A DNA stretch of 32,000 bases from the NCBI GenBank assembly GCA_963816725.1, contig CAWFMC010000018.1:431977-463976 (forward strand), in the 5' to 3' direction. The position numbers and the translations under genes were made by a program. Below the pieces are notes generated by a model. The model was not told where the DNA came from. It searched no databases and was given only the letters and a program-made list of their open reading frames with translations. This document shows, piece after piece, positions 7,557 to 27,305 of the stretch; the first letter of the stretch is position 1; each line of letters opens with the position of its first letter. Source of the stretch: an uncultured Acidobacteriota bacterium. GTDB lineage: Bacteria > Acidobacteriota > Vicinamibacteria > Vicinamibacterales > 2-12-FULL-66-21.

Positions 7557-8827
7557 GCCTCCTCGAAGTGCTCCAGGCGCTCCTTCATCGAGGTGAGAAA
7601 CCGACCCGCTTCCGCGCCATCGATCAACCGGTGATCGTAGCCGAGCGTCAGGTGGCACACCGGGCGGATCGCGATCGCATCGTCGATCACGACCACGCGC
7701 TTGTCGATGCTGCCGACGCCGAGAATTGCGACCTGGGGCTGGTTGATCAGGGGCAGGCCGTAGAGCGCGCCGAACACACCGGGGTTGGTGATCGTGAACG
7801 TGCCCGCCTGCACCTCCTCGGGACTCAGCCTCTTCGATCGGGCGCGCCCCGAAAGGTCGTTGATCGCGCGGCTCAACCCGAGCAGGTTCTTCTCGTCGGC
7901 GTTGCGGATCACCGGCACGATCAGGCCGTTGTCGAGCGCCACGGCGATGCCGAGGTTGATGTCTTTGCGGTAGACGATGTTGTCGCCGTCAATCGAGGCG
8001 TTGACCATCGGGAACTGGCGCAGCGCATCGACCGTGACCTTGGCGATGAATGCGGTGAAGGTGAGCTTCGCGCCGGCCGCCTCGAACGCCGCCTTCCGTG
8101 ACTCGCGCAGCGCATGGACCCGCCCGAAGTTGACCTCGTAGACGGAGTAGACGTGCGGCGAGGTGTGCGCGCTGAGCACCATGTGCTCGGCGATCTTCTT
8201 GCGCATCACCGTCATCGGCACGATGCTGACGCGCTCCCCCGGTTTGAACGTCACGCTCGGGGCCGGCCTCTTGGCGCTCCTGGCGGCCGCCGGCGTGACG
8301 GCTGCCCCACGTTCGATGTAGTCGAGGATGTCCTGCTTGGTGACCCGCCCGGCGATGCCGGTCCCGTGAATCGACCTGATGTCGATGTGGTGTTCCTGCG
8401 CGATGCGGCGCACCAGGGGCGAGGACTTCTGGCGCCGAAGATCGTCCGCGCTCGGCTCGTCTGCGGAGGACTCGCTTTCGGAGCGATCCATTTCCGGCTC
8501 GCCCGCTACGGCCGCCGGAAGCTCGCTCGGCCCGCTCGCATCAGCCGCGCCGTGGGCGTCAAGGTCCGGGGTGGCGGCCTCTCCGGCGCGCTCGCCGCCG
8601 ATGATCGCGACGACGCTGTTGACGGGGACGGTCTCCCCTTCTTTCGCCGTGATCGACGTCAGCACGCCGGCCGCCGGGGATGGAATCTCGGCGTCGACCT
8701 TGTCGGTCGAGATTTCGAACAGCGGCTCGTCGCGGTCGACCTCGTCGCCGATCTTCTTGATCCAGCGGACGATGGTCCCTTCGGCGATCGACTCGCCCAT
8801 CTGGGGCATGACGACGTTTGTGGGCAT
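7547..8827 (-). CDS. 2-oxo acid dehydrogenase complex E2 (dihydrolipoamide acyltransferase)
   Basis: Lipoyl domain [46 protein letters not shown]3-binding domain [32 protein letters not shown], catalytic [11 protein letters not shown] 8827 chosen; the upstream 170 aa of the ORF-track entry is rejected. Confidence 0.9.
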
Positions 8828-8991
8828 GGTCTTGAGCTTCCAGCTCCCAGGTTCCAGGGGGGCGATGACGGCGGCCTTCACCTCGGGAGGGGCAGTCGCC
8901 TGCTCGCCCGCCACAATCGTCCCACCTTCGCGAGCCTCCAAACTACCCCAATACCGGCAGCTGGCAGCTGGAAGCTGAGGAGCGTCAGTTC

Positions 8992-10416
8992 CTAAGCGTG
9001 AATCGCCCCGCCGTGCGCCGCGTGCGCTGCTTCGCCGATTGCTTCCGACATGGTCGGGTGCGCGTGGATGGTACGGATCAACTCCTCGACCGTGCACTCC
9101 AAGCGTAGCGCGAGGGTCGCCTCGGCAATCAGCTCGGTGGCGCGCGGGCCGATCAGGTGGACGCCGAGGATTTCGTCGTACTTGGTGTCGAACACGATCT
9201 TCGCAAAACCCTCGACTTCGCCGGCGATCCGGGCGCGGGCCAGGATGCCGAATTTGAAGGTGCCGATCTTGACCTCGTAGCCGCGGGCCTGTGCTTCCTT
9301 CTCGGTCAGGCCGACGCTGCCGATCTCGGGGTCGCAATACGTGCAGCCGGGCACCTGGTCGTAGTTGATCGGCCGGAACTCGCGCCCGGCAATCCGCTCG
9401 GCGAGGGCCACGCCTTCCGCGGAGGACAGGTGCGCCAGTTGGGGGTGCCCGGGATGGTCGAAGGTGATCACGTCGCCGATCGCGGAAATTCCGGGCACGC
9501 CGGTTTCGAATTGCTTGTTGACCTTGATGTAGCCGCGCTCCAGCGTCAGGCCGGCTTCCTCAGCGCCGAGCCCCTTCGTGACCGGGCCCCGCCCGGTCGC
9601 GACCAGCAGGTAGTCGGCTTTGAGCGAGGCGGTCTTGCCATCGCCCCCTTGGGCCTCGAGGCTGACGCCGTCGGCGGCGGGCTTCGCGGAGGTGACCTTG
9701 GCCGCGGTCATGACCTTGATGCCCTGCTTCTTGAACGAGCGCTCCAGCTCCGCCGACACGGCCTCGTCTTCGACCGGCACCAGGCGCGGCAACAGCTCGA
9801 TGATCGTCACGTCGCTACCGAAGCGGCGGAAAATCGAGGCGAACTCGACACCGACCGCGCCGCTGCCCATGATCGCAATCGATTTGGGCACCTCGCGCAG
9901 TCCGATCGCTTCGTCGCTGGTGATGATCCGTTTCCGGTCGATGGCGATGCCGGGAACGCTGCGCGGTTCGGACCCGGTGGCGACGATGATCTCCTTGCTG
10001 GCGGTCAAGGTCTGGGTCTGCCCTTGGCCATCGGTCACCTCGACGGTGCCCTTACCGGCCAGCCGCCCGCTGCCCTTGATCCAGTCGATCTTGTTCTTCC
10101 TGAAGAGCAGCTCGACGCCACCCGTGAGGCCCTTGACGATCTTGTCCTTGCGCGCGTGCACCTGGGTCATGTCGAGCGCAACGGCGGCCTCGCCGATGGT
10201 CAGGCCCCACTCTTTCCAGTTCTGGGCGATCTTCAGGGCATGCGCGTGCTCGAGCAGCGCCTTAGTAGGAATGCAGCCCCAGTTCAGGCAGGTTCCGCCC
10301 AGGGTCGGCGCGCGCTCGACGACCGCGGTGCGCAACCCGAGCTGCGCGGCGCGGATGGCGGCGACGTAACCGCCGGTTCCGGAACCAATCACGACGACGT
10401 CGTAGGTATTCGCCAC
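8992..10416 (-). CDS. lpdA: dihydrolipoyl dehydrogenase (E3)
   Basis: FAD motif VVIGSGTGGYVAA, redox-active disulfide GGTCLNWGCIPTK, C-terminal HAHPTMSE. Confidence 0.95.
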   Translation of the reverse strand: MANTYDVVVIGSGTGGYVAAIRAAQLGLRTAVVERAPTLGGTCLNWGCIPTKALLEHAHALKIAQNWKEWGLTIGEAAVALDMTQVHARKDKIVKGLTGGVELLFRKNKIDWIKGSGRLAGKGTVEVTDGQGQTQTLTASKEIIVATGSEPRSVPGIAIDRKRIITSDEAIGLREVPKSIAIMGSGAVGVEFASIFRRFGSDVTIIELLPRLVPVEDEAVSAELERSFKKQGIKVMTAAKVTSAKPAADGVSLEAQGGDGKTASLKADYLLVATGRGPVTKGLGAEEAGLTLERGYIKVNKQFETGVPGISAIGDVITFDHPGHPQLAHLSSAEGVALAERIAGREFRPINYDQVPGCTYCDPEIGSVGLTEKEAQARGYEVKIGTFKFGILARARIAGEVEGFAKIVFDTKYDEILGVHLIGPRATELIAEATLALRLECTVEELIRTIHAHPTMSEAIGEAAHAAHGGAIHA

Positions 10417-10420
10417 AGGG

Positions 10421-10678
10421 TTACGAGTCCTTCTTGCGGATGGACGACAGCGGGACGAAAGTCATCGAGGGAGTCGACGCGGCCACCGGTTCGGGCGCCG
10501 CCGCGGGGGCGTCACCGGGATCGAGACGGGCGACCTGCGATCGCAGGCGGGTATAGTCGTAGCGCAGCTCCCAGTACGACTGGTTCAGCGTTTCGAGCCG
10601 GCGCGCCTGACGCCGGACCAGCAGCAGCGCTATTGCCGCGAGAGCCAGCGCCAGGGCGGTCACGCTCCACAACACCAC
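10421..10678 (-). CDS. small single-pass membrane protein, unknown function
   Basis: GTG start. N-terminal TM helix LWSVTALALALAAIALLLV followed by a charged helix. Ends 4 nt before the lpdA start and carries the lpdA SD (AAGGA) in its 3' end. Confidence 0.5.
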   Translation of the reverse strand: MVLWSVTALALALAAIALLLVRRQARRLETLNQSYWELRYDYTRLRSQVARLDPGDAPAAAPEPVAASTPSMTFVPLSSIRKKDS

Positions 10679-10764
10679 AACCGACCTACCTTACCGATCG
10701 TCAGCCAGCACTGTCAATGGACCGCGGCGCCGGCCGCGGAGCCTTGATACAATGCGCTCGCTCC

Positions 10765-12150
10765 ATGTCCGGACTCTCGAAGACGGTCCTGATCTGCGAC
10801 GACGATCAGGGCATGCGCGACACGATCGCGGCGATCCTGCAGCGCGAGTACCGCGTGCTCTCGGTGCCGAGCGGCGAGTCCGCGTTGGCCGTGCTCAAGC
10901 AGGAGGACGTCGACGTCCTGCTGCTCGATGTCCGCCTCCCGGGCATCAACGGGCTCGACGTCCTGCGCATCGTGCGGGAGAACTACGGCTTCGTCGAGTG
11001 CATCGTGATCTCGGCGATCAGCGAGGTCGAGACCGCCGTCCAGGCGATGAAGTACGGCGCCTACCACTACGTCACCAAGACGTTTGAGTACGACGAGCTG
11101 CGATCGCTCGTGCGCAACGCCTGCGAGCACCAGGATCTCAACCGCCAGGTGGCGATGCTGAGCGCCCAGGTGGCCGAGGGAGAGCGCGAGTTCCTGATCG
11201 GTCCGAGCCGGCAGATCCGGGAGATCGTGGACCTGGTGCACAAGGTCGCGAAGCTGTCGGCCACGGTGCTGATTCTGGGCGAGAGCGGTACCGGCAAAGA
11301 GTTGCTGGCGCGACTGCTCCATCGCGAGTCCGGCCGGCGCGACGCGCCGTTCATCGCCGTCAACCTGTCCGCGATCCCGCACGAGCTGGTAGAGAGCACG
11401 CTGTTCGGCCACGAGCGCGGCTCGTTCACCGGTGCGCACAAGCAGCAACTCGGGAAGTTCGAGCTCGCATCGGGCGGCACGCTCTTCCTCGACGAGATCG
11501 GGGACCTCCGCCTGGACCTCCAGGCCAAGCTGTTGCGGGCCATTCAGGAAGGGGAAATCGAGCGGATCGGCGGCACCAAGCCGATTCGGACGAACTTCCG
11601 GCTGGTGGTGGCCACCAACGTCGACGTCGAGAAGGCGGCCAAAGAGGGACGCTTCCGCGAGGATCTCTACTATCGGATCAACGTCATTCCCATTCGGATG
11701 CCGCCGCTCCGCGAACGCCTCGACGACCTGCCGGAACTGGCCCGGCTGTTTCTCGAGCGCTACCGGGTCAAGTTCCGGAAGCCGGTGCTCGGGATCGCGG
11801 ATTCGGCGGTAAAAATCTTGGCCTCGTACTGGTGGCCGGGCAACATCCGGGAGCTCGAGAACCTGATCGAGCGACTGGTCGCGGTCAGCGACAAGGAGTG
11901 GATCACCGACGAGGACCTCCCGATGGAGTATCACCTCGCCAAGCTGGATTCGGGCCCGGCGGCCGGCGAGACGCTGTTCCAGGAGGCCTGCGACACCTTC
12001 GAGCGCAACTTCATTCTCCGCGCGCTCGAGAAGTCCGACTGGAACGTGACCGCGACCGCCCGCTATCTCGGGATTCCGCTCAGCACGCTGAAGCACAAGA
12101 TGGCTCGTCTCGAGCTGCGCGATCTCGCGCGCAGGCTGCGCGGCGTCTGA
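10765..12150 (+). CDS. sigma-54-dependent response regulator (NtrC/Fis family bacterial enhancer-binding protein)
   Basis: Receiver (VLICDDDQGMRD, LLLDVRLPG), AAA+ sigma-54 interaction domain (Walker A GESGTGKE, GSFTGA loop, LFLDEIG), C-terminal HTH (TATARYLGIPLSTLKHKM). ATG 10765; the upstream 536 aa of the 997-aa ORF is antisense to lpdA and rejected. Confidence 0.95.
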   Translation: MSGLSKTVLICDDDQGMRDTIAAILQREYRVLSVPSGESALAVLKQEDVDVLLLDVRLPGINGLDVLRIVRENYGFVECIVISAISEVETAVQAMKYGAYHYVTKTFEYDELRSLVRNACEHQDLNRQVAMLSAQVAEGEREFLIGPSRQIREIVDLVHKVAKLSATVLILGESGTGKELLARLLHRESGRRDAPFIAVNLSAIPHELVESTLFGHERGSFTGAHKQQLGKFELASGGTLFLDEIGDLRLDLQAKLLRAIQEGEIERIGGTKPIRTNFRLVVATNVDVEKAAKEGRFREDLYYRINVIPIRMPPLRERLDDLPELARLFLERYRVKFRKPVLGIADSAVKILASYWWPGNIRELENLIERLVAVSDKEWITDEDLPMEYHLAKLDSGPAAGETLFQEACDTFERNFILRALEKSDWNVTATARYLGIPLSTLKHKMARLELRDLARRLRGV

Positions 12151-12212
12151 CGCCAACCAGCCCGCCATCCGTCCCATTACGGCTCGTCTTCCAGGCTTCC
12201 GGTTGGCGGGGG

Positions 12213-12282
12213 CGGCCAATCACTCGGCCAATCAGCGAACCGGGCGGCTAACCTATTGGCCGGATCGGTGGGCCGATCGGCC
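12213..12282 (+). promoter_or_regulatory. candidate enhancer (UAS) repeats
   Basis: CGGCCAATCA at 12213-12222 and 12225-12234 (direct). Inverted copy TATTGGCCGG at 12254-12263. Perfect 12-bp palindrome GGCCGATCGGCC at 12271-12282. Lies about 135-205 bp upstream of the putative -12 element. Confidence 0.35.
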
Positions 12283-12404
12283 CTCTTGCGCTCGCGTACG
12301 GCCGACGGGCCCGCAGAGCTCTATCCAAAGAGTTCACTGGAATCGGCCACTTATCGCTTATCTCCCGCCGTCGATATGACTCTTTGGTCAGTCCGTAAGA
12401 CCGT

Positions 12405-12420
12405 CGGAATATCGGTTGCA
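12405..12420 (+). promoter_or_regulatory. candidate sigma-54 (-24/-12) promoter
   Basis: cGGaatatcggTTGCA has correct GG-N10-GC spacing (GG 12406-12407, GC 12418-12419) and a perfect -12 TTGCA, but a weak -24 (CGGAAT vs TGGCAC). It lies 76 nt upstream of the rSAM ATG and just downstream of a sigma-54 activator gene. Confidence 0.35.
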
Positions 12421-12495
12421 CTTCGCCGGGCGGTGGGCGGCGCGCTGGTTCGTCCGATGAGCGCTCCGTCGATCGCCAGGCCACGGAGGAGTCCC

Positions 12496-13914
12496 ATGCA
12501 GCCCTCGATGTTCAACGTGAGTGTCCCGCTCGATGGTCGCGACGACGTGTTCCTGATGAACACGTTTTCGGACGCGCAGCTGATTGTGTCGCGTGACGTG
12601 GCCGACGTGCTCGATCGCATCGCCCGCGGTGAACGGCAGTTCGCCGCCGACGAGCGTGACGCCATCGACACCCTCGTCGAGCAGGGGTTCATCGTCGAGA
12701 GTCGGGCCGCGGATCATCAGGCGCTGGAGGAGTTCTTCCACAACGTTCGGGAGGATCGCAGCCAGCTGCGGGTCACGGTCCTGACCACCCTGCAGTGCAA
12801 CTTCGCCTGCGATTACTGCATCCAGGGCGATCACGGCGATTACAACAAGCACGCCGCCAAGATGTCGCTGGACACCGCCGCGCGCACCGCCGAGTGGGCC
12901 GAGCAGCGGCTGGACGCGGTGGCCCCGTCGAGCTTCGCGCTGACGTTCTTCGGCGGCGAGCCGCTCCTCAACCTGCCGGTTCTGTTCTACCTGTCCGAGC
13001 GCCTCGCCGAGAGCTGCCGTGTGCGCGGTGTGCGGATGATGATCAACATCATCACCAACGGGCTGCTGCTGACGCCGGCGATCGTCGATCGGCTGACGCC
13101 CCTGGGCCTGAACGGCGTCAAGGTCACGCTCGACGGCGACCGCGACACGCACAACAGGATGCGGCCGCTGCGCGGGGGCCAAGGCACCTTCGACCGAATC
13201 CTCGACAACGTGCGGCAGGTCGCCGGCAAGACGCGGATCTCGATCGGCGGCAACTTCGACGAGCAGAGCGTCGACAGCTACCCGGCGCTCCTCGACTTCC
13301 TGCGCGAGCAGGAGTTCGCCGGTCAGCTGGCCAAGGTCGCGTTCAAGCCGATCATCAAGCCGGCGCAGTCCGCCCATCCGAAAGGCACGTTCGCACTGAC
13401 CGCGGTCGGCTCGGACGGGAAGCCGCTCGGCGGCGCGTGCATGACGTCGGCCGGGACCGGCGTCTCGAGTGCCTGCGACAACTGCCACTTCCTCGACGAG
13501 AAGATGTCGTATTTGCGCGAGGAAACGATGCGGCGCGGCTTTCCGACGATGGACGGCGTGCACATGGGGCCGTGCGAGATCCACAAGCATCACGCGCACA
13601 CCGTCGGGCCGGACGGTTCGCTCTACGCCTGCCCGGGGTTCGCCGGCGAAGCCACGCAGTCGACCGGCCACATCGACGGCCGCGACGAACAGTGGCGGCG
13701 CGAGTCGGCCAGGCGCTTCGAGGTGATCACGGCGTGGTCCGAGTGCAACGACTGCGCGTTCATTCCGGTCTGCGCCGGCGGCTGCAGTGTCGCGGCGCAC
13801 GCCGAGCTGGGCGACCTGCAGAAGCCCAATTGCCACAAAACGAGTTTCGAGGCTGGCGTGGTGACGCTGGCGAGACAGGCAGCAGCGCGAGCGGAGCCCG
13901 CGCTGGCCGGGTAA
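12496..13914 (+). CDS. radical SAM/SPASM domain peptide-modifying enzyme (RiPP maturase-like)
   Basis: GGAGGA SD 5 nt before ATG 12496. About 95-aa N-terminal extension before the core (RRE/PqqD-like position). CNFACDYC (CxxxCxxC) at aa 101-108. GGEPLL. SPASM motifs GSLYAC (GX4C) and CNDCAFIPVCAGGC (CX2CX5CX3C) plus the trailing Cys in PNCHK. Extra Cys triad CMTSAGTGVSSACDNC. Confidence 0.9.
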   Translation: MQPSMFNVSVPLDGRDDVFLMNTFSDAQLIVSRDVADVLDRIARGERQFAADERDAIDTLVEQGFIVESRAADHQALEEFFHNVREDRSQLRVTVLTTLQCNFACDYCIQGDHGDYNKHAAKMSLDTAARTAEWAEQRLDAVAPSSFALTFFGGEPLLNLPVLFYLSERLAESCRVRGVRMMINIITNGLLLTPAIVDRLTPLGLNGVKVTLDGDRDTHNRMRPLRGGQGTFDRILDNVRQVAGKTRISIGGNFDEQSVDSYPALLDFLREQEFAGQLAKVAFKPIIKPAQSAHPKGTFALTAVGSDGKPLGGACMTSAGTGVSSACDNCHFLDEKMSYLREETMRRGFPTMDGVHMGPCEIHKHHAHTVGPDGSLYACPGFAGEATQSTGHIDGRDEQWRRESARRFEVITAWSECNDCAFIPVCAGGCSVAAHAELGDLQKPNCHKTSFEAGVVTLARQAAARAEPALAG

Positions 13915-13946
13915 GGGGAATGGCTTCGCTAGTTTGGGAGGGTCCG

Positions 13947-14027
13947 GTGGAAGTAGAACGCAACGAGAGCGGCAAGAAAAAGGGGGCGCTGCGCCCCTGG
14001 CTGGTCGACGTCGTCATCGACGAATAG
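13947..14027 (+). CDS. putative divergent precursor-like peptide (26 aa from GTG 13947; 35 aa if ATG 13920)
   Basis: GGGAGGG SD 4 nt before GTG. (M)EVERNESGKKKGALRPWLVDVVIDE aligns with the two 31-aa peptides (M1, G9, K11, K12 and PW.VD identical, with a 3-residue gap where the others have HVC). Confidence 0.45.
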   Translation: MEVERNESGKKKGALRPWLVDVVIDE

Positions 14028-14081
14028 CTGCGCTGAGGGCAGCTCGGGTCACGCTTCACTCACGTCAGTCAGGAGAGAGTC

Positions 14082-14177
14082 ATGAAAATCCAGGTCGTTC
14101 AAAAGGGTACGAAGAAGATCATGTCGAATCACGTGTGCCCTTGGTACGTCGACGAGCCGCCGGCCGCCAAGAAGTAG
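14082..14177 (+). CDS. radical-SAM-associated precursor peptide, copy 1 (31 aa)
   Basis: AGGAG SD 6 nt upstream. MKIQVVQKGTKKIMSNHVCPWYVDEPPAAKK. Not in the ORF track (too short). Paralogue 141 nt downstream. Confidence 0.8.
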   Translation: MKIQVVQKGTKKIMSNHVCPWYVDEPPAAKK

Positions 14178-14222
14178 GCGCCGCCCGCGATCGACGAATT
14201 CACCATTTTCTGAAGAGGCATC

Positions 14223-14318
14223 ATGAAGATCCACGTCGTTCAGAAGGGCACCAAGAAGATCATGTCCAACCACGTGTGCCCTTGGTACGTCGACGAGCCG
14301 CCGGCCGCCAAGAAGTAG
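14223..14318 (+). CDS. radical-SAM-associated precursor peptide, copy 2 (31 aa)
   Basis: AAGAGG SD. MKIHVVQKGTKKIMSNHVCPWYVDEPPAAKK. It has 7 nt differences from copy 1, all at third codon positions: 6 synonymous and 1 Q4H. Flanks are not conserved. Confidence 0.8.
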   Translation: MKIHVVQKGTKKIMSNHVCPWYVDEPPAAKK

Positions 14319-14327
14319 CTGCACGTG

Positions 14328-14357
14328 GCCCGTTGCCGGGAATCCACGGCAACGGGC
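14328..14357 (+). terminator. perfect 11-bp GC-rich hairpin 10 nt after the last peptide gene (terminator/attenuator or mRNA stabiliser)
   Basis: GCCCGTTGCCG-ggaatcca-CGGCAACGGGC. No U-tract follows. Confidence 0.45.
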
Positions 14358-14497
14358 GCAGCACCATCCGCGGTCGTCGACAGGGGTACAGCTCGCCATC
14401 GGTTCTGCCGATACCCCGCTGAGACGCTGGCACCGACGATCAGAGGGCATGGCTTGCCCTCGGCGACTGTGGCAGAGTAGCGCCATAGCGGCGAGAC

Positions 14498-16039
14498 ATG
14501 CTGGTGCGCTCCACACAACGTTCGTCCCTCCTTCCGACCCGGCGCGAGCTGGGCATTTTCGCCTGCCTGCTATGTGCGGTCGTCGCCCTGGCCTGCCGAA
14601 ACAGCGGTCCTGTGAGCGCGGTCAAGGACAGCCTGACGATCGGCATCTCAATACCCAAGGTCGGTGGGGACGAAAACAACATCGACAAAGTGAGCGGGTC
14701 GATGACGTTGGAAACGGCGGTAGCCAACGCACTCGACGGCAAGCCGGCAAAGCGCATATTCGACAGTTGGAAATGGATCGAACACGGCCACGCCCTCGAG
14801 CTGCACCTGCAGCCTCGTGTTTTCTTTCACGACGGTACTCCTCTCAACGCTGAGCTCGCCGCTGACATCCTCAGGGACAGTCTCACCCACCCGGAGCTAA
14901 CGCAGATTTCCGAAGTCGATTCGGTCGCCGCGACCGACGACGAGCATGTCGTGATCAGGACCAAGCGACAGGAGGGACTGCTACTGTCGGACCTGTCGAT
15001 GATCGAATTCGAGCGCCCAGGCAAGCCCGGTGTGGGCACGGGTCCCTTCAAGGCGACAGCCGACCCGGCGACCGTGGAAGCCTTCGATCGGTACTACCTG
15101 GGCGCGCCGACACTCAAGCGGGTCAGGCTCGTCGAATACGATTCTCAGCGGGCCGCCTGGTCGGCCATGATGCGCGGCGAGATTGACATGCTGCATCAAG
15201 TCAGTCGAGACGCCGAGGAGTTCGTCGAAGCCGAGTCGAGTGTCAAGGCCACCAAGTTCCTCAGGCCCTACTACAACGGCATCGTGTTCAACACTCGTCA
15301 TGCCGACCTCTCCAAGCGGGAGGTCCGAGTCGCGCTGAACGAGGCGATCGATCGTGCCGCGATTGTGCGCCTCAGCCTGGGCGGACAGGGGCGGCCGGCC
15401 AGCGGACCCGTATGGCCTCTGCATTGGGCGTATTCGACGTCGGTGTCGGAGTTCGGTTACGACCCGGCTCGCGCTGCGGAGCGGCTGGATGCTCTCGGCT
15501 ACACCGTCGGTCGGGTCAAAGAACCGGGGCGGATGCCGAGCCGGTTTCATTTCAAGTGCCTGCTGGTCGAGAACGATCCGGGTGCCGAGCGAATCGCCCT
15601 GCGCGTGCAGCGACAGCTTTACGAGCTGGGCGTCGACATGGAGGTCGTGCCGGTAAAGAGTCTGAGGAAGGCCTTCAGCACCGGCGACTTCGATGCGGCG
15701 CTGCTGGAATTCATCGGCTCGCGTGCGCTGAACTGGCTCTATATACTCTGGCACTCGCCGCAGCCAGGAGCACGGAGTCAGCTCCCAACCGGGTACGACG
15801 CCGCCGACTCGGCACTCGACCGATTCCGGTCAGCAACCGACGAGACCGATATCCGGGCGTCAGTGGAAGAAATGCAGCGAGTGTTCCGCGACGATCCTCC
15901 GGCTCTGTTCCTGGCCTGGCAGGAACGCTCGCGAGCCCTGAGCAGGGCGTTCGAAGCACCGGACGAGGGCAACGTCGACATCCTCGGAACGATCCGCCAG
16001 TGGCGCGGCGTGCCGATGCCAAAGCAGGGCCGCAAATGA
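14498..16039 (+). CDS. family-5 (peptide/nickel/opine type) substrate-binding protein, no cognate transporter genes nearby
   Basis: SBP_bac_5-like motifs FFHDGTPLNA, GTGPFK, FGYDPARAAERLDALGY. N-terminal signal sequence with a possible lipobox (VVALAC). No permease or ATPase genes adjacent. Confidence 0.85.
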   Translation: MLVRSTQRSSLLPTRRELGIFACLLCAVVALACRNSGPVSAVKDSLTIGISIPKVGGDENNIDKVSGSMTLETAVANALDGKPAKRIFDSWKWIEHGHALELHLQPRVFFHDGTPLNAELAADILRDSLTHPELTQISEVDSVAATDDEHVVIRTKRQEGLLLSDLSMIEFERPGKPGVGTGPFKATADPATVEAFDRYYLGAPTLKRVRLVEYDSQRAAWSAMMRGEIDMLHQVSRDAEEFVEAESSVKATKFLRPYYNGIVFNTRHADLSKREVRVALNEAIDRAAIVRLSLGGQGRPASGPVWPLHWAYSTSVSEFGYDPARAAERLDALGYTVGRVKEPGRMPSRFHFKCLLVENDPGAERIALRVQRQLYELGVDMEVVPVKSLRKAFSTGDFDAALLEFIGSRALNWLYILWHSPQPGARSQLPTGYDAADSALDRFRSATDETDIRASVEEMQRVFRDDPPALFLAWQERSRALSRAFEAPDEGNVDILGTIRQWRGVPMPKQGRK

Positions 16040-17751
16040 GGGGCGTCACCGCCAGGTTCGTGATGCTCATTGCGACGGCAGCCGTCGCGCCGCTGGTCGT
16101 GTATGGCGTCGTCTCGATTCTCCGCCTCGAATCGGGCACCAAACAGTCGGTGACCGAAGGCAACACGCGGGTCGCCAAACAAGCCGCCGAGCAGATCAAG
16201 CAGTACATCGAGAACAACCAGCGCGTCCTCAAGTCCCTCGGCGTCGAGCTCCGCGCTCCGGAGCTGCAGGACTGGCAGCGGTCCGGGATCCTGCGCGACT
16301 ATGTGCTCGATTTTCCGGAGTTCCGCGAGATTGCCTTACTCGACGACAGCGGTGCCGTGGTGGTCACCAGCCGGTTTGGACAATCCAGGGCCACGGTCCC
16401 CCCGGCCGAGAATGTCACGGGCGACCTCTACGTTTCGGCGCTGCGCCTCGATGACGACTTCCTGCCGACCGCCACTATCGGTGTCAGGACCAACAGCCCG
16501 CAGAGCGGCCGGACGTGGATCGTCGGCGAGATCGCGCTCGAAGAGCTGTGGCGCATGGTCGACCGCATTCGCGTCGGGCAATACGGATACGCGCTGCTGT
16601 TGTCCGAGAAGGGCGTGCTGGTCGCGCATGGCAATCCGGACAAGAAGCGGCAGATCGCGGTGGCCGCAAAGACGGCCTCTGGCGACACGCTGGCAGGTCA
16701 GCGGTACGTCAAGAACAACCCCGGATTGCTTTACGTCGATGAGCCCGTCGACGGCCTGAACTGGCGAGTCGGTGTGGAGCAGCCGGAATCCGAAGCCTTC
16801 CGGCTGAATGGCGAGCTGCGCACCCAACTCCTCTACGTCATCGGCGCGGCGCTCCTCGGCACGTTGGTGGTCGGTTACCTCTGGGCCCGCACCTTCATCA
16901 CCCGCATCTTCGCGCTCAAGCGCGCCACCCTGGCCATCGGCGAAGGGCGCTTCGACGAGCGGGTCGCGCTCACCGGAGACGACGAGCTGAAGCAGCTCGG
17001 CGACTCCTTCAACTCGATGGCCGACAGCATCGTCCAGCTGCAGGAGGACGTGCGTAAGCAGGAACGGCAGGCGATGTTCGGCCGGATCGCCGCCGGCCTG
17101 GTCCACGACCTGTCACACCCGATCCAGAACATCGGGAACAGCTGCAAGCTGATTCAGAAGATGTACGACGACCTCGAGTACCGCGCCACCTTCAAGCGCA
17201 CCGTCGAGCGCGAGATGGTCGTCGTCAAACGGGTGCTCGACGACCTGCGCAACATCGCCCGGCCGATTCCGCTCGAACGGTTCCCAATCGAAGTCGATCG
17301 GACGCTGGGCGAAGTCGTCGAATCGATGCAGCAGCATGCCGAAACCGCCGGCCTGACGCTGCGCGGCGAGTTCGCCGCCACCGGCGCCTTCATCGAGGGC
17401 GACCTTTTTGCATTGGGGCGGGTGTACCGGAATCTGATCGTCAACGCGATTCAGGCCACCGCGCCGGGCGGGCTGGTCGCGGTCGCGACCGAGCTGGCCG
17501 GGGCCCGCGTGCACGTCCGTATTTACGACACCGGTTGCGGGATTCCGCCCGACCGTCTGGGCAGGATTTTCGAAGATTTCGTGACCACGAAGCGGCGCGG
17601 CCTGGGGCTGGGGCTGGCGATTTCCAAGAAGATCGTCGAGCAGCTCGGCGGGACGATTTCGGTTGCCAGCGAGGTTGGCAAGGGCACAACCTTCGTCCTG
17701 GAGTTTCCAAGGACGAAAGGCGGCAACGTGGCCCTCGATCAGGCCGGCTGA
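16036..17751 (+). CDS. sensor histidine kinase (TM, periplasmic Cache-like domain, TM, HAMP, HisKA, HATPase)
   Basis: ATG 16036 overlaps the SBP stop (ATGA). TM helices at about aa 8-28 and 264-288. HAMP region (LKRATLAIGEGRFDERV...ELKQLGDSFNSMA), H-box GLVHDLSHPIQN, NLIVNAIQAT, DTGCGIPP, GLGLGLAISKKIV. Confidence 0.9.
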   Translation: MRGVTARFVMLIATAAVAPLVVYGVVSILRLESGTKQSVTEGNTRVAKQAAEQIKQYIENNQRVLKSLGVELRAPELQDWQRSGILRDYVLDFPEFREIALLDDSGAVVVTSRFGQSRATVPPAENVTGDLYVSALRLDDDFLPTATIGVRTNSPQSGRTWIVGEIALEELWRMVDRIRVGQYGYALLLSEKGVLVAHGNPDKKRQIAVAAKTASGDTLAGQRYVKNNPGLLYVDEPVDGLNWRVGVEQPESEAFRLNGELRTQLLYVIGAALLGTLVVGYLWARTFITRIFALKRATLAIGEGRFDERVALTGDDELKQLGDSFNSMADSIVQLQEDVRKQERQAMFGRIAAGLVHDLSHPIQNIGNSCKLIQKMYDDLEYRATFKRTVEREMVVVKRVLDDLRNIARPIPLERFPIEVDRTLGEVVESMQQHAETAGLTLRGEFAATGAFIEGDLFALGRVYRNLIVNAIQATAPGGLVAVATELAGARVHVRIYDTGCGIPPDRLGRIFEDFVTTKRRGLGLGLAISKKIVEQLGGTISVASEVGKGTTFVLEFPRTKGGNVALDQAG

Positions 17752-17834
17752 CATGTTCCGTTCGGGGTCGGCGCGCGTTGATCCTTGTTGGGCCCGTCGC
17801 GAAATCGCGGCGCCGCCGTTCTGTGGAGGATGCG

Positions 17835-18083
17835 ATGTTTCGAACGCTCGTGAAGACCGGCGAGATCGAGGCGGACGGACGCACGTACGTCGCCTACTAC
17901 TTCGAGCTGCGCACGGCGCGTGGCGCGCGCCGCTACAGCTGCGAGATCCTCCTCAAGGCGCCGGACCGGATCATCGTCGACGACGACTCCCTGACCAGCC
18001 TCGAGCTGCTGGTCGCCCGCACCGTGCCGGCCACCCTGGCCAGCCGCCGCCTCGCCGCCCGCCCCGCTGTCGTCGCCGCCTGA
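17835..18083 (+). CDS. hypothetical protein (82 aa)
   Basis: GGAGGA SD 4 nt before ATG 17835. MFRTLVKTGEIEADGRTYVAYYFELRT...; no family recognised. Confidence 0.45.
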   Translation: MFRTLVKTGEIEADGRTYVAYYFELRTARGARRYSCEILLKAPDRIIVDDDSLTSLELLVARTVPATLASRRLAARPAVVAA

Positions 18084-18115
18084 GTCTGCGCGGGACCGGC
18101 CGTACAAAGCAAATC

Positions 18116-18155
18116 GGCCCGCTGGCGCGCCGCATCGAACAGGGCGCCAGGGGCC
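18116..18155 (-). terminator. hairpin terminator downstream of hup (between convergent genes)
   Basis: GGCCC(G)CTGGCGC / GCGCCAGGGGCC forms a 12-bp stem with one bulge. On the minus strand it is followed by GATTTGCTTTG. Confidence 0.45.
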
Positions 18156-18173
18156 GATCAGGCAACGGGCTTG

Positions 18174-18473
18174 CTACTTCCGCGGCAGTACCGAGTCCTT
18201 CAGCTGCTTCGCGATCCGCGCCTTGACGACCGTCTTCGCCGGAATCTTGATCGCTTCGCCAGTCGCGGGGTTGCGGCCCATCCGGGCCTTCCGCTTCTGA
18301 ACCACCAGCTTGACCATTCCCGGCAAGACGAACTCGCCAGAGCGCTTCAGCTCCTTCTCCGCCAGCGTCGTCATCTCATCGAAGAACTCCCTCGCCTGCG
18401 TCCGCTTGATCTCGAAACGATCGGCGAAGTGCGAGAAGAGTTCTGACTTGCCCATTCTGCGGGCCTCTGCCAT
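18174..18473 (-). CDS. hup: HU family DNA-binding protein
   Basis: KSELFSHFADRF..., beta-arm RKARMGRNPATGEAIKIPAKTVVK. An alternative start at ATG 18455 (MGKSEL) is possible. Confidence 0.9.
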   Translation of the reverse strand: MAEARRMGKSELFSHFADRFEIKRTQAREFFDEMTTLAEKELKRSGEFVLPGMVKLVVQKRKARMGRNPATGEAIKIPAKTVVKARIAKQLKDSVLPRK

Positions 18474-18585
18474 CGGCTGTTCCCCTTGCTGTGGGCGCGC
18501 TGTCTGTTGCCCGCGGTCGGCCGCGCGCGCGTGCGGCGGAGGCGGAGAAATTGTGTGAAAGCAGCCGGTATCCTAGCGCGCCGCG

Positions 18586-18627
18586 TTTTGGCCTGTCAAT
18601 GCGCGATCCTGCGGACACAGGCCAAAA
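18586..18627 (+). other. perfect 11-bp stem-loop in the hup/queF divergent intergenic region (possible queF leader structure)
   Basis: TTTTGGCCTGT (18586-18596) pairs with ACAGGCCAAAA (18617-18627) around a 20-nt loop, 28 nt upstream of the queF ATG. Confidence 0.3.
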
Positions 18628-18654
18628 TCGGCCTGAATGCTACAATTTTCTGCC

Positions 18655-19020
18655 ATGGATCTGGAGACCTTCCCCAACCCGAACTCCGCGCGCGACTACG
18701 AGATCGCCATCCGCTGCACCGAATTCACCTCCGTCTGCCCCAAGACCGGCATGCCGGACTTCGGTGAAATCCGCATCGCGTATGTGCCGGATGCCCTGTG
18801 CGTCGAGCTCAAGTCGCTGAAGTACTACATGTTGCAGTTCCGTGACCGCGGCATTTTCTACGAGGCGGTGACTAATCAAATCCTCGACGACCTGGTCGCC
18901 GCGGTCCAGCCGCGACGCATGACCGTGGTCGGCGACTTCTCGGTCCGCGGCGGGATCAGCACGATCGTCACCGCCACGCATGAGAGCGGTGCCCGGCCGC
19001 ACGCCGGGGTGACGAGTTAG
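18655..19020 (+). CDS. queF: NADPH-dependent 7-cyano-7-deazaguanine (preQ0) reductase, unimodular type
   Basis: Catalytic Cys context [14 protein letters not shown] and QueF motif ELKSLKYYM. Start set to ATG 18655 (MDLETF). Confidence 0.9.
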
Positions 19021-20056: not shown

Positions 20057-21385
20057 TCACGCCTCGCCTCCCTGTGAGCTGGTCTCTTCGAGGAAATAGC
20101 TGCGGCACGCCGCGTCCAGCAGGTCGCGCGAAAGCGCCGGCGGCCGGCCCTGGTAGCGGCACATATCGACGACCTGCTCGACCAAATCGCGCGGGTGGCA
20201 GGCGCGCATCTGGAGCTTGCGTGGCGTGTAGTACTTCCGGTTCAAGTACTCGACCATCACCGGATCGAACGCCAGCCCGCGCTTCCGGCAATTCAGCTCG
20301 AAGATCCGGCAGTACTCGTCGAGGGTCGGGTTCTTCGCCAGGATCTTGTAGGGGATCCGGCGCAGGAACGCTTCGTCGGCCAGCGATTCCGGTTTGAGAT
20401 TGGTGGCGAACACGATCAGCACGTTGAACGGAACCTCGAATTTTCGTCCGGTGTGCAGCGTGAGGAAATCCACCCGGCTCTCGAGGGGCACGATCCACCG
20501 GTTCAGCAAATCCCGCGGCGGCACACGCTGTCGGCCGAAGTCGTCGACCACGAACACCCCGCCGTTGGCCTTGAGCTGGATCGGGGCTTCATAGAACCGC
20601 GCGATCGGGTTGAACGTCAGGTCGAGCATCTCCAGCGTCAGCTCACCGCCGACCACGACCACCGGCCGGCGGATGGACTCCCAGCGGCGATCGTGTGCCG
20701 CGCTGGTGATCACGCTGGAGGACGCCCCGGTGCTGCGGATGTGCGTGTGGTTCACCGGATCGAACATGGTGATCACCTGCCCGTCCACGTCGAGCGCGTG
20801 CGGGATGTGCATCTCCTCACCCAGGGCCCGTCCGATGCCTTCGGCGACCACCGTCTTGCCGTTGCCGGGTGCGCCGTACAGGAACAGCGACTTGCCCGAG
20901 TTCACCGCCGGGCCGAGCCGCTCGAACATCGAGTCGTTGACGATCAGGTCCTTGAATCCGGTCGCCAGGCGCTCGCGATCGACATAGGGCCGCGCCGCCA
21001 TGCAGGCTCGCACGTAGCCGTTGTAGTGCGCCAGCGGCACCGGAGCCGGGCCGACGTAACGCGAGATCTCCAGGAACTGGAAGGCCCGATCGCGGCCCAG
21101 ATCGGTGAGCGCGTAACGGTACCCCGCGCTGCCTACGCCGTTGGCGCCCCGGACTTCGAGCAGCTTCTCGAGCCGGGCATGCTGGATCAGCGCGTCGAGC
21201 AGCGAGTACGGCAGCCGCAGGCTGTCGGCCAGCCCGGACCCGCTCGACTCGCCGGCGACAAGCGTCTTCAGCAGCAGCTGCTTCAGCGTGTCCGGGTGGA
21301 GGCCGCTCTCCTCGATTGTCGCCGGCGGCGCCGGCGGCATCGGCTTCGCGGTGGCGGGGCCGACGTCAAGGGCGGCGGCACTCAT
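20057..21385 (-). CDS. AAA+ ATPase of unknown role, translationally coupled to tadC
   Basis: Walker A LYGAPGNGKT, Walker B-like VFVVDDFG, sensor-1-like VFATN, FLRRI. About 170-aa non-ATPase N-terminal domain. Its ATG overlaps the tadC stop (ATGA, 21382-21385). Confidence 0.85.
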   Translation of the reverse strand: MSAAALDVGPATAKPMPPAPPATIEESGLHPDTLKQLLLKTLVAGESSGSGLADSLRLPYSLLDALIQHARLEKLLEVRGANGVGSAGYRYALTDLGRDRAFQFLEISRYVGPAPVPLAHYNGYVRACMAARPYVDRERLATGFKDLIVNDSMFERLGPAVNSGKSLFLYGAPGNGKTVVAEGIGRALGEEMHIPHALDVDGQVITMFDPVNHTHIRSTGASSSVITSAAHDRRWESIRRPVVVVGGELTLEMLDLTFNPIARFYEAPIQLKANGGVFVVDDFGRQRVPPRDLLNRWIVPLESRVDFLTLHTGRKFEVPFNVLIVFATNLKPESLADEAFLRRIPYKILAKNPTLDEYCRIFELNCRKRGLAFDPVMVEYLNRKYYTPRKLQMRACHPRDLVEQVVDMCRYQGRPPALSRDLLDAACRSYFLEETSSQGGEA

Positions 21386-22302
21386 CGGCGGGTGTTCTCG
21401 ATCATGGGGAACAGCACCGTGACGAACCGGATCGCCGCCGGTCCGATGGTGACGACCCAGATTGCCGGGAAGATGCAGAACACCAGCGGGAAGACCATCT
21501 TGACCCCGGTTTTCGCGGCGGCTTCCTCGGCCCGCTGCCGCCGCTTCGTGCGGAGCGTCTCCGAGTAGACCCGCAGCGACTGCGCGACGCTCGTGCCGAA
21601 CTTGTCGGTCTGGATCAGCATCGTGCAGAGCGAGTTCAGGTCATCGACACCGGTGCGGTCGGCGAGGTTGCGGAGCGCCTCGCCGCGCGGCTTGCCGGCA
21701 CGCAGTTCGAGGTTGACGAGCCGCAGCTCGTCCGACAGATCCGCGTAGGCGAATGAGAGCTCGTCTCCCACGCGCGTCAGCGCCTGATCCAGGCCCAGGC
21801 CGGCCTCGACGCTGACCACCAGCAGATCGAGCGCGTCGGCGAGCGACAGGCGGATGCGGTGCGCACGACGTCGGGCGAGCCGCGCGAGCACCATCCCGGG
21901 GATGATGTAGCCGAAGCCCAAGCCAGCGAGCGCGATCGACACGTTCGGACGCATGAGGATCGAGCTGGAGAACAGGAGGAACAGCCCGAGCGCCAGCAGC
22001 ACCCGGATGCCGAAAAAGATCGTCACCGCTTCAGGGCGCCGGTAGCCCGACTGCACCAGCCGCGTCCGCAGCGACCCGAGCTCCTTGGTATTCCGCGGCG
22101 CCCGTTCTCCAATCCGCTTCACCACCCCGACCATCGCGTCGAACGTCTTGCGCTCGACCGGCTCGGCGCCCTGGGCGGCAGTGGTCAGCTCCTCGAGACG
22201 TCGATCGATCGCTCCGGCGCGCTTCGGCAGCAGCACGAATGCCGCACCCGTGACGATCACCGAGCCGAATAGAAATGCCAGCAGCGGCAGCAGCAACGTC
22301 AC
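21382..22302 (-). CDS. tadC: Flp pilus assembly inner-membrane platform protein TadC (T2SS F family)
   Basis: T2SSF-type topology and position after tadB. GTG start at 22302. Confidence 0.85.
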   Translation of the reverse strand: MTLLLPLLAFLFGSVIVTGAAFVLLPKRAGAIDRRLEELTTAAQGAEPVERKTFDAMVGVVKRIGERAPRNTKELGSLRTRLVQSGYRRPEAVTIFFGIRVLLALGLFLLFSSSILMRPNVSIALAGLGFGYIIPGMVLARLARRRAHRIRLSLADALDLLVVSVEAGLGLDQALTRVGDELSFAYADLSDELRLVNLELRAGKPRGEALRNLADRTGVDDLNSLCTMLIQTDKFGTSVAQSLRVYSETLRTKRRQRAEEAAAKTGVKMVFPLVFCIFPAIWVVTIGPAAIRFVTVLFPMIENTRR

Positions 22303-22303
22303 G

Positions 22304-23280
22304 CTACACCTCGATCTTGACGACCTGGCGAATCCACATGTAGCCGCACGTCTGCATGACGATCGCGCCGAGGAGCAGCATCTGGCCCATGTGCTCGCGG
22401 AACAGAAGGTTCATGTGGTCGGGGTTGATGAACGCCAGCGCCACGCACAGCACCGCCGGGAGCGCCAGCAGGACGTAGCCGGTCATGCGGCCGTGCGCCG
22501 TGTAGACCCGGACTTGCCGCAGGATCTTGAAGCGCTCGCGCACGACGTGGGCGAGGTTTTCGAGGATCTCCGAAAGATTGCCGCCGGTTTCGCGCTGAAT
22601 CAGAACCGCGGTGGCGAAGAAGCGCACGTCGATGATCGGCACCCGCTGCGTGAGGTTGTCGAGCGCGTCCTTCATCGGCAGGCCGAAGTTCTGCTCGTCG
22701 AACGTCTTGCGGAACTCGGGCCCGACCGGCTCGGCCATCTCGTCGGCCACCATCTTCAGGCCGGTGGCGAATGCGTGCCCGGCCTTGAGCGCCCGCGAGA
22801 TGAGGTCGAGCGCTTCCGGAAACTCCTCTTCGAACGCCCGCATGCGCTTCCCGCGCTTGCGACTGAGCAGTAGGAACGGCAGCGCGAATCCGACGGCCGC
22901 GCCGACCGGCAGCCCCCACGACGCACGCACCGCCATGCCGACCCCCATGGCCACGATGATCGCGACCATCACGGCCTTGACGACGACCGCACTGAGCGTG
23001 GTCTGGACGCCCGTCTGCTCGAGCCAGCGGCTCAGGGCAGACCCTGGAGCCGAGCCGCGCAACAGACGATCGAGCGCCGGCAGCGGGCCGGAGGCCTGCG
23101 CCTTCAGGAGGTCCTCATCTATCGCCGCGCCGCGCTGGTCGGGCGTCTGAGAGATTTGCTGCAGCCGCCTGTCGAGCTTCCTGCGCATCAGCATGCCGGG
23201 CACGCGCGTCGCCCCGAGATAGGCGCCCACCACCAACCCGACGCCGATCACGAACGCCACGCTCACCAGCAGCACCGGCA

Positions 23281-23281: not shown

Positions 23282-24621
<1,340 letters not shown>

Positions 24622-24634
24622 GATGACGTCCTGA

Positions 24635-27287: not shown

Positions 27288-27305
27288 GGCCTGCCCTTCG
27301 ATCTC

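Follow-up and report, generated by a model that had tools for sequence, protein, structure and literature searches.

A radical SAM peptide operon behind a sigma-54-type promoter, conserved with an orphan solute-binding protein and a two-component system, and its possible feedback loop

We analyzed a 32,000-nucleotide stretch of contig CAWFMC010000018.1 (the window), from an Acidobacteriota bacterium of soil, in which positions 10765-18083 of the + strand hold a module centred on a radical S-adenosylmethionine (rSAM) enzyme and short peptide genes, of the kind seen in systems for peptides that are made by ribosomes and modified after translation (RiPPs). A preliminary description, made from the sequence alone, had listed eight elements between the - strand lpdA operon and hup: a sigma-54 activator gene, an intergenic region with a promoter-like element and palindrome, the rSAM gene, three short peptide genes, a hairpin, the gene of a family-5 solute-binding protein (SBP), a Cache/HAMP histidine kinase gene overlapping the SBP stop, and a gene for an 82-amino acid (aa) protein. 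All eight are present at those positions (Table 1). Upstream, on the - strand, lie genes for a lipoate ligase, an E2 component and LpdA; downstream are genes for HU, QueF and an Smr protein, followed by a Tad/Flp pilus cluster. The description had also stated that the module contains no protease or exporter, and indeed no ABC exporter, peptidase or permease was found in the module or in the housekeeping flanks of the window.

Table 1 Features of the module, in window coordinates.
Feature	Position	Strand	Remarks
NtrC-family response regulator/sigma-54 activator (bacterial enhancer-binding protein, bEBP)	10765..12150	+	REC + AAA+ + HTH_8
Inverted repeat CCAAAGAGT ... ACTCTTTGG	12325-12333/12379-12387	.	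perfect 9-nt arms, just upstream of the -24 element
Promoter element of the -24/-12 sigma-54 type, CGGAATATCGGTTGCA	12405..12420	+	GG-N10-GC; 75 nt before the rSAM ATG
Predicted rSAM/SPASM peptide maturase with N-terminal domain resembling a RiPP recognition element (RRE)	12496..13914	+	Pfam/NCBIfam, fold
Class A short peptide gene	13920..14027	+	35 aa, ...GALRPWLVDVVIDE, no Cys
Class B precursor gene, copy 1	14082..14177	+	MKIQVVQKGTKKIMSNHVCPWYVDEPPAAKK
Class B precursor gene, copy 2 (Q4H variant)	14223..14318	+	tandem copy
Stem-loop	14328-14338/14347-14357	+	perfect stem of 11 nt and loop of 8 nt; lies 10 nt past the stop of the last peptide gene and is not followed by a T-run
Orphan family-5 SBP, probable periplasmic lipoprotein	14498..16039	+	SBP_bac_5 5.9e-45
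Sensor histidine kinase: transmembrane segment (TM) - dCache_1 - TM - HAMP - H-box - HATPase_c	16036..17751	+	start overlaps SBP stop (ATGA)
Conserved 82-aa protein	17835..18083	+	no Pfam/NCBIfam match

Relatives of the module were collected by scanning one genome per species, which gave 291 stretches with relatives of the enzyme; the best 80 of the 291 were used as loci. These 80 are all from Acidobacteriota, the majority labelled Vicinamibacterales, a common lineage of soil and groundwater metagenomes. Peptides were counted in 76 untruncated loci, promoter elements in 72 intergenic regions between the bEBP and rSAM genes, and protein distances were computed for 48 complete loci. For wider relatives, a HMMER search with the enzyme returned 9,308 proteins at E <= 1e-10, and neighbourhoods were viewed for relatives of 33-56% identity. 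The distribution of the peptides is known through loci reached by way of the rSAM enzyme. Two long-read contigs from ENA (L085 and L087) were excluded from the counts; their homologous cassettes are split into many short called genes, probably by frameshift errors in the assemblies. Among the 80 loci, every sufficiently long one has the gene order bEBP - rSAM - short open reading frames (ORFs) - SBP - kinase, and the position of the cassette is fixed among housekeeping genes, between lpdA and hup-queF-smr.

The enzyme gene was compared with curated families and solved structures. Its product matches Pfam Radical_SAM (7.7e-16), with a CX3CX2C motif (C101/C105/C108) whose residues are near-invariant or invariant in the alignments, and the SPASM model TIGR04085 (47.6 bits, cut-off 27). 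Seven near-invariant SPASM cysteines (C360; C379, after G374; C417-X2-C420-X5-C426-X3-C430; C446) make up a set for two auxiliary clusters. The best NCBIfam match is the geopeptide maturase family TIGR04280 (254.5 bits, below the cut-off of 400), followed by the CefB, TIGR04463, Clo7bot, FlmE/OhkG, PapB, QhpD and SCIFF maturase families; the enzyme falls under the cut-off of every named family. This includes the ranthipeptide models (PapB 120.7 vs 340; SCIFF maturase 94.2 vs 425) and the model for QhpD (113 vs 453), an enzyme that makes Cys-Asp/Glu links. Going by their NCBIfam names, most of the neighbours are maturases of Cys-rich or thioether peptides (geopeptide, CefB, TIGR04463, PapB, SCIFF maturase, CcpM). 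In public records the Vicinamibacterales orthologues are named just 'radical SAM protein'.

The closest solved protein by sequence is CteB (5wgg, E 1.6e-16), a peptide thioether synthase, and not a sulfatase maturase, the kind of relative that the preliminary description had held would count against a peptide-modifying role. An AlphaFold2 model of the enzyme (predicted local distance difference test score, pLDDT, 71) agrees with this, since a Foldseek search ranked CteB first (5why/5wgg, E ~1e-16 over the full length), ahead of TigE and, after it, anSME. Residues 8-86 of the model form three strands and three helices in the RRE arrangement and lie inside the full-length CteB alignment, with pLDDT 53-84. 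We regard the N-terminal domain, with moderate confidence in the model, as putatively RRE-like.

Taken within the window alone, neither the short ORFs nor the promoter pattern GG-N8-TTGCW is significant (for the pattern, 5 matches vs 5.4 expected at a window GC of 66%); both were judged real because they are conserved in position across species, not from window statistics. The two tandem class B genes encode MKI[Q/H]VVQKGTKKIMSNHVCPWYVDEPPAAKK, share 93% nucleotide identity over 98 nt and differ by a single amino-acid change. Class B peptides, of the form MKIxV[IV]KK, ~10 residues, C-[P/A]-[W/F/Y]-x-x-[D/E]..., occur in 72 of the 76 loci with 1-4 copies each; of the remaining four, L062 carries a variant to which the pattern was blind. 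Their Cys is invariant in 97/97 unique sequences, followed at +2 by W (70), F (20) or Y (7) and at +5 by D (52) or E (44). Amplification to near-identical tandem copies was observed in L023 (four copies, ~8550-9200) and L033 (three copies).

Class A peptides (..TLRPWLVDVxV[DE]HLR) were found in 57 of the 76 loci, always as the first gene after the rSAM gene. The window copy ends ...RPWLVDVVIDE, stopping early, without the HLR tail of the family. Class A is confined to one Vicinamibacterales sub-clade and is absent from a more distant one; the sub-clade that has it is largely the one with an AAAGAGT/ACTCTTT inverted repeat before the promoter. An Arg of class A sits exactly at the position of the invariant Cys of the universal precursor described below, and the two codons (CGC vs TGC) are one transition apart. 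Class A is under strong purifying selection, and this Cys-less peptide may not be an equivalent substrate.

Class A shows a variability of 0.12/0.05/0.35, and class B one of 0.25/0.14/0.31, at the first, second and third codon positions; both were judged coding because third positions vary most. Shine-Dalgarno sequences precede the peptide genes (aggagag before class B copy 1). The preliminary description had taken P-W-x-V-D as the motif shared by all three peptides. The three genes are real, but PWxVD is clade-specific, and the single Cys is the feature that is invariant across the family. It had also found the precursor unlike any familiar one, which agrees with the lack of any match when NCBIfam peptide models were searched against five of the peptides at E up to 10. 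The window precursor core has one Cys, in contrast to the multi-Cys CX3D repeats or the six Cys of SCIFF. Behind its conserved leader the core is hypervariable (mean distance 0.64), a combination typical of secreted RiPPs and unlike cofactor precursors. These comparisons argue firmly for an rSAM/SPASM enzyme of the RiPP type with dedicated precursors and, by analogy with its closest relatives, the enzyme likely acts on the single Cys, with a thioether as the probable product.

A [C/T]GG-N8-TTGC[A/T] element lies at the equivalent position in 70 of the 72 intergenic regions between the bEBP and rSAM genes, with the rSAM start a median of 96 nt downstream of it, and takes the canonical form TGGCA/TGGTA...TTGCT in more distant loci. 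With a position weight matrix built from the conserved sites, 12404 reaches 27.7 and no other position of the window exceeds 11.3; no second sigma-54 element of comparable score was found inside the module. Of 70 loci, 40 carry the repeat pair A[AT]AGAGT - ~63 nt - ACTCTTT upstream of the -24 element, as against none of 3500 shuffles, which makes the inverted repeat a candidate set of activator/operator sites. Thus the promoter-like element and the palindrome noted earlier in the window are both present, and the former is kept across species and in other phyla. A simple sigma-70 consensus scan, which is uninformative for this phylum, gave no promoter in the module, and an Rfam scan of 10000-19000 gave no riboswitch or other known RNA.

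The bEBP itself matches Response_reg (5.6e-26), Sigma54_activat (6.3e-68), AAA_lid_14 and HTH_8 in Pfam, and its translation contains a GSFTGA loop of the GAFTGA type. Its best NCBIfam matches are AtoC and NtrC, both under cut-off. The window does not contain rpoN. Judging from this domain set and the conserved promoter, the activator likely drives the sigma-54 promoter. The arrangement shows the enzyme gene and the 2-3 short precursor genes as a single predicted transcription unit behind this conserved -24/-12 element. Downstream of that unit, the 90 nt past the last class B gene fold with a median of -35.7 kcal/mol (70 loci) vs -25.8 for a coding control; the stem-loop there may be a 3' end stabilizer or an attenuator.

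No permease or ATPase gene for the SBP was found in the module or in the window flanks. As the preliminary description stated, this is a family-5 SBP without transport partners, directly followed by a Cache/HAMP kinase whose start overlaps the SBP stop. The named NCBIfam families nearest to the SBP are nickel, opine and oligopeptide binders (including NikA and CntA), all far under cut-off. Most of 30 SBP N-termini that were read have a hydrophobic stretch followed by Cys, and the strict lipobox pattern is present in 24 of 60, which suggests a periplasm-facing lipoprotein. The kinase matches dCache_1, HAMP and HATPase_c in Pfam and, under cut-off, AtoS in NCBIfam; its TM-dCache-TM topology was read from the sequence. 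Homologues of the 82-aa protein follow the kinase in 36 of the 80 loci and also occur in the Syntrophobacterales locus L092 (32% identity, E 5e-13) and in L089, so this ORF is a conserved cassette member and not a bystander. A single-sequence model of it (pLDDT 62) has four strands and one helix, and a fold search with this low-confidence model gave no significant match.

The cassette was also seen outside the Vicinamibacterales. In L084, whose enzyme is 54% identical, the same cassette lies in the same hup-queF-smr synteny and encodes the peptide MKITVLKKAQKAPSREMCPWMICVPPESGK. Three unclassified metagenomic contigs (L089, L090, L091) and a Nitrospiria locus (L093) have the order bEBP - TonB-dependent receptor - rSAM - peptide - SBP_bac_5 - dCache kinase, with an extra TonB_C protein upstream in L091. 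The Syntrophobacterales chromosome CP070774 (L092) has bEBP - rSAM - peptide - SBP_bac_5 - kinase, followed by a 66-aa ORF, the 82-aa homologue and a TonB-dependent receptor gene. Partial sets were also seen, with rSAM, peptide and SBP_bac_5 in L086, and rSAM and dCache kinase in L088 (Latescibacterota). In full-length alignment to the window proteins, the complete other-phylum cassettes (L089-L093) show 48-56% identity for the bEBP (82-90% in near relatives), 33-41% for the kinase, 33-37% for the rSAM enzyme and 24-28% for the SBP. Sigma-54-type elements lie upstream of the rSAM gene in L090 (TGGCACCTAAGTTGCA), L092 (TGGCATAACCATTGCT) and L093 (AGGCACGCGTCTTGCT), with weaker matches in L089 and L091 and a similar element in L084; in L089, L090, L091 and L093 the element falls between the receptor gene and the rSAM gene. 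The SBP, kinase and bEBP thus co-occur with the rSAM and peptide genes with no exception in the Vicinamibacterales and again in other phyla, and we conclude that the rSAM-peptide genes are firmly locked, as far as gene order tells, to an NtrC-type activator and an SBP_bac_5/dCache-kinase pair. These neighbourhoods also bear out the preliminary description of a RiPP-like module, since the short ORFs are real, conserved precursor-type genes that are kept beside homologues of the enzyme.

The other-phylum peptides directly follow or overlap the rSAM stop and have strong Shine-Dalgarno sequences. They are MKITTLKKGTKKSNPSPVWCPHWVR, MKLVVVKKGSRKENAKPTKCQAFVSW, MKIRVIKKADEEHDPKPQWCWWFFW, MKLKVVKKGSKEDKKVLWCFWYLYV, MKMKIVKKGERKTRSAPPSCPVFIR and MKIIKKGSKIVVPRPDCQVVIDWR. 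Together with the Vicinamibacterales peptides they define a universal precursor with the leader MK[IL]xV[IV]KKG, ~10 residues, one invariant Cys and a short, mostly hydrophobic/aromatic tail of 5-7 residues (12 in the window), or 5-13 for the precursor family as a whole. PWxVD and the acidic +5 residue are found only in Vicinamibacterales, and an Asp/Glu at Cys+5 was rejected as a universal crosslink acceptor, being unconserved in L084 and L089-L093.

Each of the five complete cassettes from other phyla has a TonB-dependent receptor gene inside it or next to it, which implies a ligand that comes from outside and is too large to pass through porins. In the Vicinamibacterales, neither the loci compared nor the ORF map of the window show such a receptor in the cassette. 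The view that the module is self-contained is doubtful for this reason, as relatives in other phyla add the receptor and nothing in the module accounts for export or leader removal. Peptidase genes were seen a few genes away from some cassettes, M14 carboxypeptidase-like in L084 (7563-9730) and L087 (6073-6489) and M29 in L088 (10112-11479). Trimming of the Lys-rich C-terminus of Vicinamibacterales precursors by an M14 enzyme would be possible in principle; this idea is unsupported, with no such gene in the window.

Taken singly, the components (an rSAM/SPASM RiPP maturase, an SBP-dependent kinase and a sigma-54 activator) are of familiar types. No curated NCBIfam or Pfam family covers the precursor family, the enzyme sub-family or the combination in which they are conserved. 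No account of the cassette was found in the searchable literature, with subscription-only papers outside that scope, and one candidate paper (PMC8692599) contributed nothing. The nearest named system is that of the geopeptides (TIGR04280), whose maturase aligns with the window enzyme over its full length at ~26-30% identity. To our knowledge the geopeptide system has a bioinformatic definition, and we know of no characterized product. In the geopeptide loci viewed (L081, 3050-8314; L082/L083, 1339-8293), an rSAM enzyme and a short Cys-containing peptide are likewise accompanied by an orphan SBP, a HAMP kinase, a response regulator and a TonB-dependent receptor. However, the gene order there is TonB-dependent receptor, 33-42-aa peptide, rSAM, with the SBP and HAMP kinase divergently transcribed. 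In these loci the precursor gene comes upstream of the rSAM gene, and the peptide combines an acidic leader (MEREE..IIILDEG) with a core of the Cys-Cys type, whereas the precursors of the window are downstream and read MKIxVVQKG..C... The SBP is of family PF04392 there and SBP_bac_5 here, and the regulators are GerE-type or REC-only there and a sigma-54 activator here. True geopeptide members score far higher (P0209 and P0219, 582 and 508 bits) than the window enzyme, and score, precursor and gene context together rule out membership in that family. The window system, as read from its genes, is a sister design of the geopeptide system and not a member of it, and the combination of an rSAM peptide with a TonB-dependent receptor, an orphan SBP and a two-component system may be a recurrent design assembled from different protein families.

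Other known systems resemble individual parts. CteB, PapB, SCIFF maturases and QhpD have an RRE-rSAM-SPASM architecture, which the window enzyme, with its putative RRE, would share, and Cys-dependent substrates, and the Cys-X4-Asp/Glu spacing of Vicinamibacterales recalls the Cys-X3-Asp of PapB and the Cys-Asp/Glu links of QhpD. The window precursor differs from those of CteB, PapB and SCIFF in having one Cys and not several, with an acceptor that is not conserved across phyla, and we know of no dedicated SBP-kinase-sigma-54 sensing set in these systems or in that of QhpD. SBP-dependent two-component systems include AioX-AioS-AioR (SBP, kinase and sigma-54 activator), ChiS with its family-5 chitin-oligosaccharide binder, LuxP-LuxQ and TorT-TorS. 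Like them, the window encodes a transporter-less SBP beside a periplasm-sensing kinase, here as a translationally coupled pair, and as in AioXSR the signal would be passed to an activator of the NtrC type, whose probable target is a sigma-54 promoter next to the genes for the sensor. Unlike in those systems, the target operon holds an rSAM enzyme and precursors in place of catabolic or respiratory genes.

Peptide autoinduction is known from the Agr autoinducing peptide and from streptococcal rSAM RiPPs under shp/rgg control, such as streptide, and methanobactin has the uptake pair MbnT/MbnE. As in Agr and shp/rgg, the window has short ribosomal peptides in which the leader is conserved and the C-terminal core, which contains Cys, is variable and hydrophobic. 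The producer genes would likewise lie under a dedicated sensor, which the placement of promoter and regulator fits; as with methanobactin, its relatives pair a TonB-dependent receptor with a family-5 SBP. The system differs from Agr and Rgg in being Gram-negative, with a periplasmic SBP, a dCache kinase and sigma-54 in the place of AgrC/AgrA or Rgg. It also has no AgrB-like, PCAT-like or MbnBC-like genes, and its feedback loop is a proposed one.

We tentatively read the locus, with slightly less than even confidence, as a RiPP operon that depends on sigma-54, is controlled by a two-component system and probably includes a feedback loop. The enzyme would bind the leader MK[IL]xV[IV]KKG through its putative RRE and would use a 5'-deoxyadenosyl radical to crosslink the single Cys with a residue of the short hydrophobic tail. 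The crosslink would most likely be a thioether, as in CteB, PapB and QhpD, and the Asp/Glu at Cys+5 may serve as its acceptor in Vicinamibacterales. The product, a small cyclic peptide, would then exit the cell and, in the Nitrospiria, Syntrophobacterales and related cassettes, would re-enter the periplasm through the TonB-dependent receptor. Binding by the SBP in the periplasm would switch the kinase, and the phosphorylated activator would open the sigma-54 promoter. The outcome would be autoinduction, either by a peptide pheromone or through sensing of the cell's own secreted product. We infer, and favour, that the SBP takes the mature peptide as its ligand, because the linkage survives in minimal cassettes, TonB-dependent receptors recur and the peptide core is hypervariable.

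In the 48 complete loci, mean pairwise protein distances are 0.18 for the bEBP, 0.31 for the rSAM enzyme and 0.40 for the whole kinase, in which the cytoplasmic part (0.28) contrasts with the dCache domain (0.54). The SBP, at 0.62, is the fastest-evolving member, beside 0.64 for the peptide core. SBP and dCache distances co-vary when the kinase core is controlled for (partial r 0.67), a statistic that does not address physical contact. In 7 of 8 close pairs the synonymous divergence (dS) of the SBP is 1.1-1.6, about twice that of the bEBP, rSAM enzyme and kinase core (0.4-0.8), and the dS of the dCache segment (0.6-1.7) exceeds that of the kinase core in 8 of 8 pairs, by a slight margin in L009/L021. 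The excess in SBP and dCache, about twofold, was observed in the sister pairs L027/L032, L001/L002, L023/L053, L050/L056 and others. It suggests a deeper allelic history, allele exchange or recombination for the SBP-dCache block, to which saturation and alignment noise could contribute. Gene-wide positive selection on the SBP was not seen in the 8 close pairs, where its dN/dS is 0.12-0.51 and dN/dS is below 1 throughout.

Co-evolution of SBP and peptide was indicated by an all-pairs partial Mantel test (r 0.44 with rSAM distance removed), but was not reproduced in 24 phylogenetically independent sister pairs, where peptide divergence follows that of the rSAM enzyme (rho 0.87) and not, given the rSAM enzyme, that of the SBP (rho 0.22, p 0.29). 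Co-variation is therefore not counted as support for the SBP binding the peptide. The preliminary description had proposed that the SBP, kinase and activator either sense the modified peptide or gate its production; the sensing is an inference from which the Mantel hint has now dropped away. Several further observations weigh, like the sister pairs, against a feedback loop of this kind. Pairs with identical peptide cores still have SBPs that are 11-33% different, and the named relatives of the SBP include binders of nickel and opine-metal complexes besides peptide binders. No exporter or leader peptidase was found in the related other-phylum or partial cassettes viewed. Class A has no Cys, the acceptor residue varies across phyla (L084 has Cys at +5), and the proximal repeat arm lies ~25 nt before the -24 GG, unusually close for an enhancer site.

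Much of this would fit as well with a RiPP operon that is gated from outside, in which the relay of SBP, kinase and activator (joined by the TonB-dependent receptor in cassettes that have one) senses something from the environment that has no relation to the peptide, for example an oligopeptide, a chelate of nickel or another metal, or a compound made by a different organism. The relay would switch on production of the peptide, which would be an antimicrobial or other effector. Promoter, activator and sensor wiring would be identical to those of a feedback loop, sensing would be explained without any exporter, and the uncoupling of SBP divergence from the peptide core in sister pairs, the fast-evolving SBP-dCache block with its roughly twofold dS in 7 of 8 close pairs, and the presence of NikA and CntA among the nearest named SBP families all sit easily with it. 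An antimicrobial, however, normally comes with immunity or export genes, of which none are present, and the tight cross-phylum linkage, including the minimal set of rSAM, peptide and SBP, is simplest if the enzyme makes the ligand. We consider external gating unlikely on balance, while taking it seriously.

A lower probability attaches to the peptide being a metallophore and public good, which would chelate a metal and be imported as a complex by the TonB-dependent receptor, to be bound by the SBP as in MbnT/MbnE with methanobactin; the kinase would report the complex, so that synthesis would be induced only while the system works. In favour of this are the receptors that accompany each of the five complete cassettes of other phyla, together with the TonB_C protein of L091, and the true geopeptide loci also join a TonB-dependent receptor, orphan SBP and kinase with an rSAM enzyme and a Cys-Cys peptide. 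MbnE is a family-5 SBP, and the best NCBIfam matches of the window SBP are nickel and staphylopine-metal binders, though far sub-cut-off. However, there is no inner-membrane permease or ATPase for cytoplasmic metal delivery, a TonB-dependent receptor is missing from the Vicinamibacterales cassette, and a thioether would use up the sole Cys of a hypervariable, largely hydrophobic/aromatic core with no conserved His or second thiol. Very improbable, finally, is a role in which the enzyme modifies a protein, for example the neighbouring SBP (compare QhpD acting on QhpC, and anSME), or makes a peptide-derived cofactor, so that the short ORFs encode no released product. QhpD and anSME are among the detectable relatives, and rSAM-SBP adjacency is kept even without the kinase, but in several phyla the short ORFs are kept as coding genes with a leader/core architecture and with translational coupling to the enzyme gene, and the enzyme has a putative RRE-like domain. 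As for a cofactor, such precursors are highly conserved while this core is hypervariable, and peptidase or tailoring enzymes are absent.

Returning to the feedback reading, a bolder form of it, which we hold to be doubtful yet conceivable, would make the cassette a cross-phylum Gram-negative pheromone system in Acidobacteriota, Nitrospirota and Desulfobacterota. A single-Cys cyclized peptide would be taken up again by TonB-dependent transport in most lineages, and a lipoprotein SBP docked to the dCache kinase would lead to sigma-54-dependent self-induction. SBP and dCache would be exchanged or diversified like a pherotype locus, and class A would act as an antagonist or second signal. If the feedback reading is true, the locus would make signalling between cells, or through the cell's own product, accessible to experiment in Acidobacteriota and Nitrospirota, phyla for which we know of no such system, and would represent a new receptor design for diderm peptide signalling, with SBP, dCache kinase and sigma-54 and with TonB-dependent re-entry. 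Since precursor and enzyme fall outside every curated rSAM-RiPP family, an undescribed product structure is likely, and the product is expected to be readily obtainable through two-gene co-expression.

Some neighbouring features of the window were also recorded. Between lpdA and the activator gene, directly upstream of lpdA, the - strand encodes an 85-aa ORF (10421-10678) with an N-terminal hydrophobic segment and no Pfam match. Upstream of the lipoate ligase, E2 and LpdA genes, also on the - strand, are genes for a Ser/Thr protein kinase and a sigma factor of the extracytoplasmic function type (2565-3530 and 5227-5850), with no evident tie to the module. The Tad/Flp-type pilus cluster (~21382-29435, - strand) encodes two T2SSF proteins, a T2SSE ATPase, an AAA_31+REC (CpaE-like) protein, a TadE/G-like protein and a secretin that carries BON and pilus-N domains. 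The pilMNOPQ genes that come after the rSAM-SBP pair in L086 are probably there by coincidence. A strong AT skew (-0.43) was observed in the 1-kb bin 27001-28000, in the region of the secretin gene.

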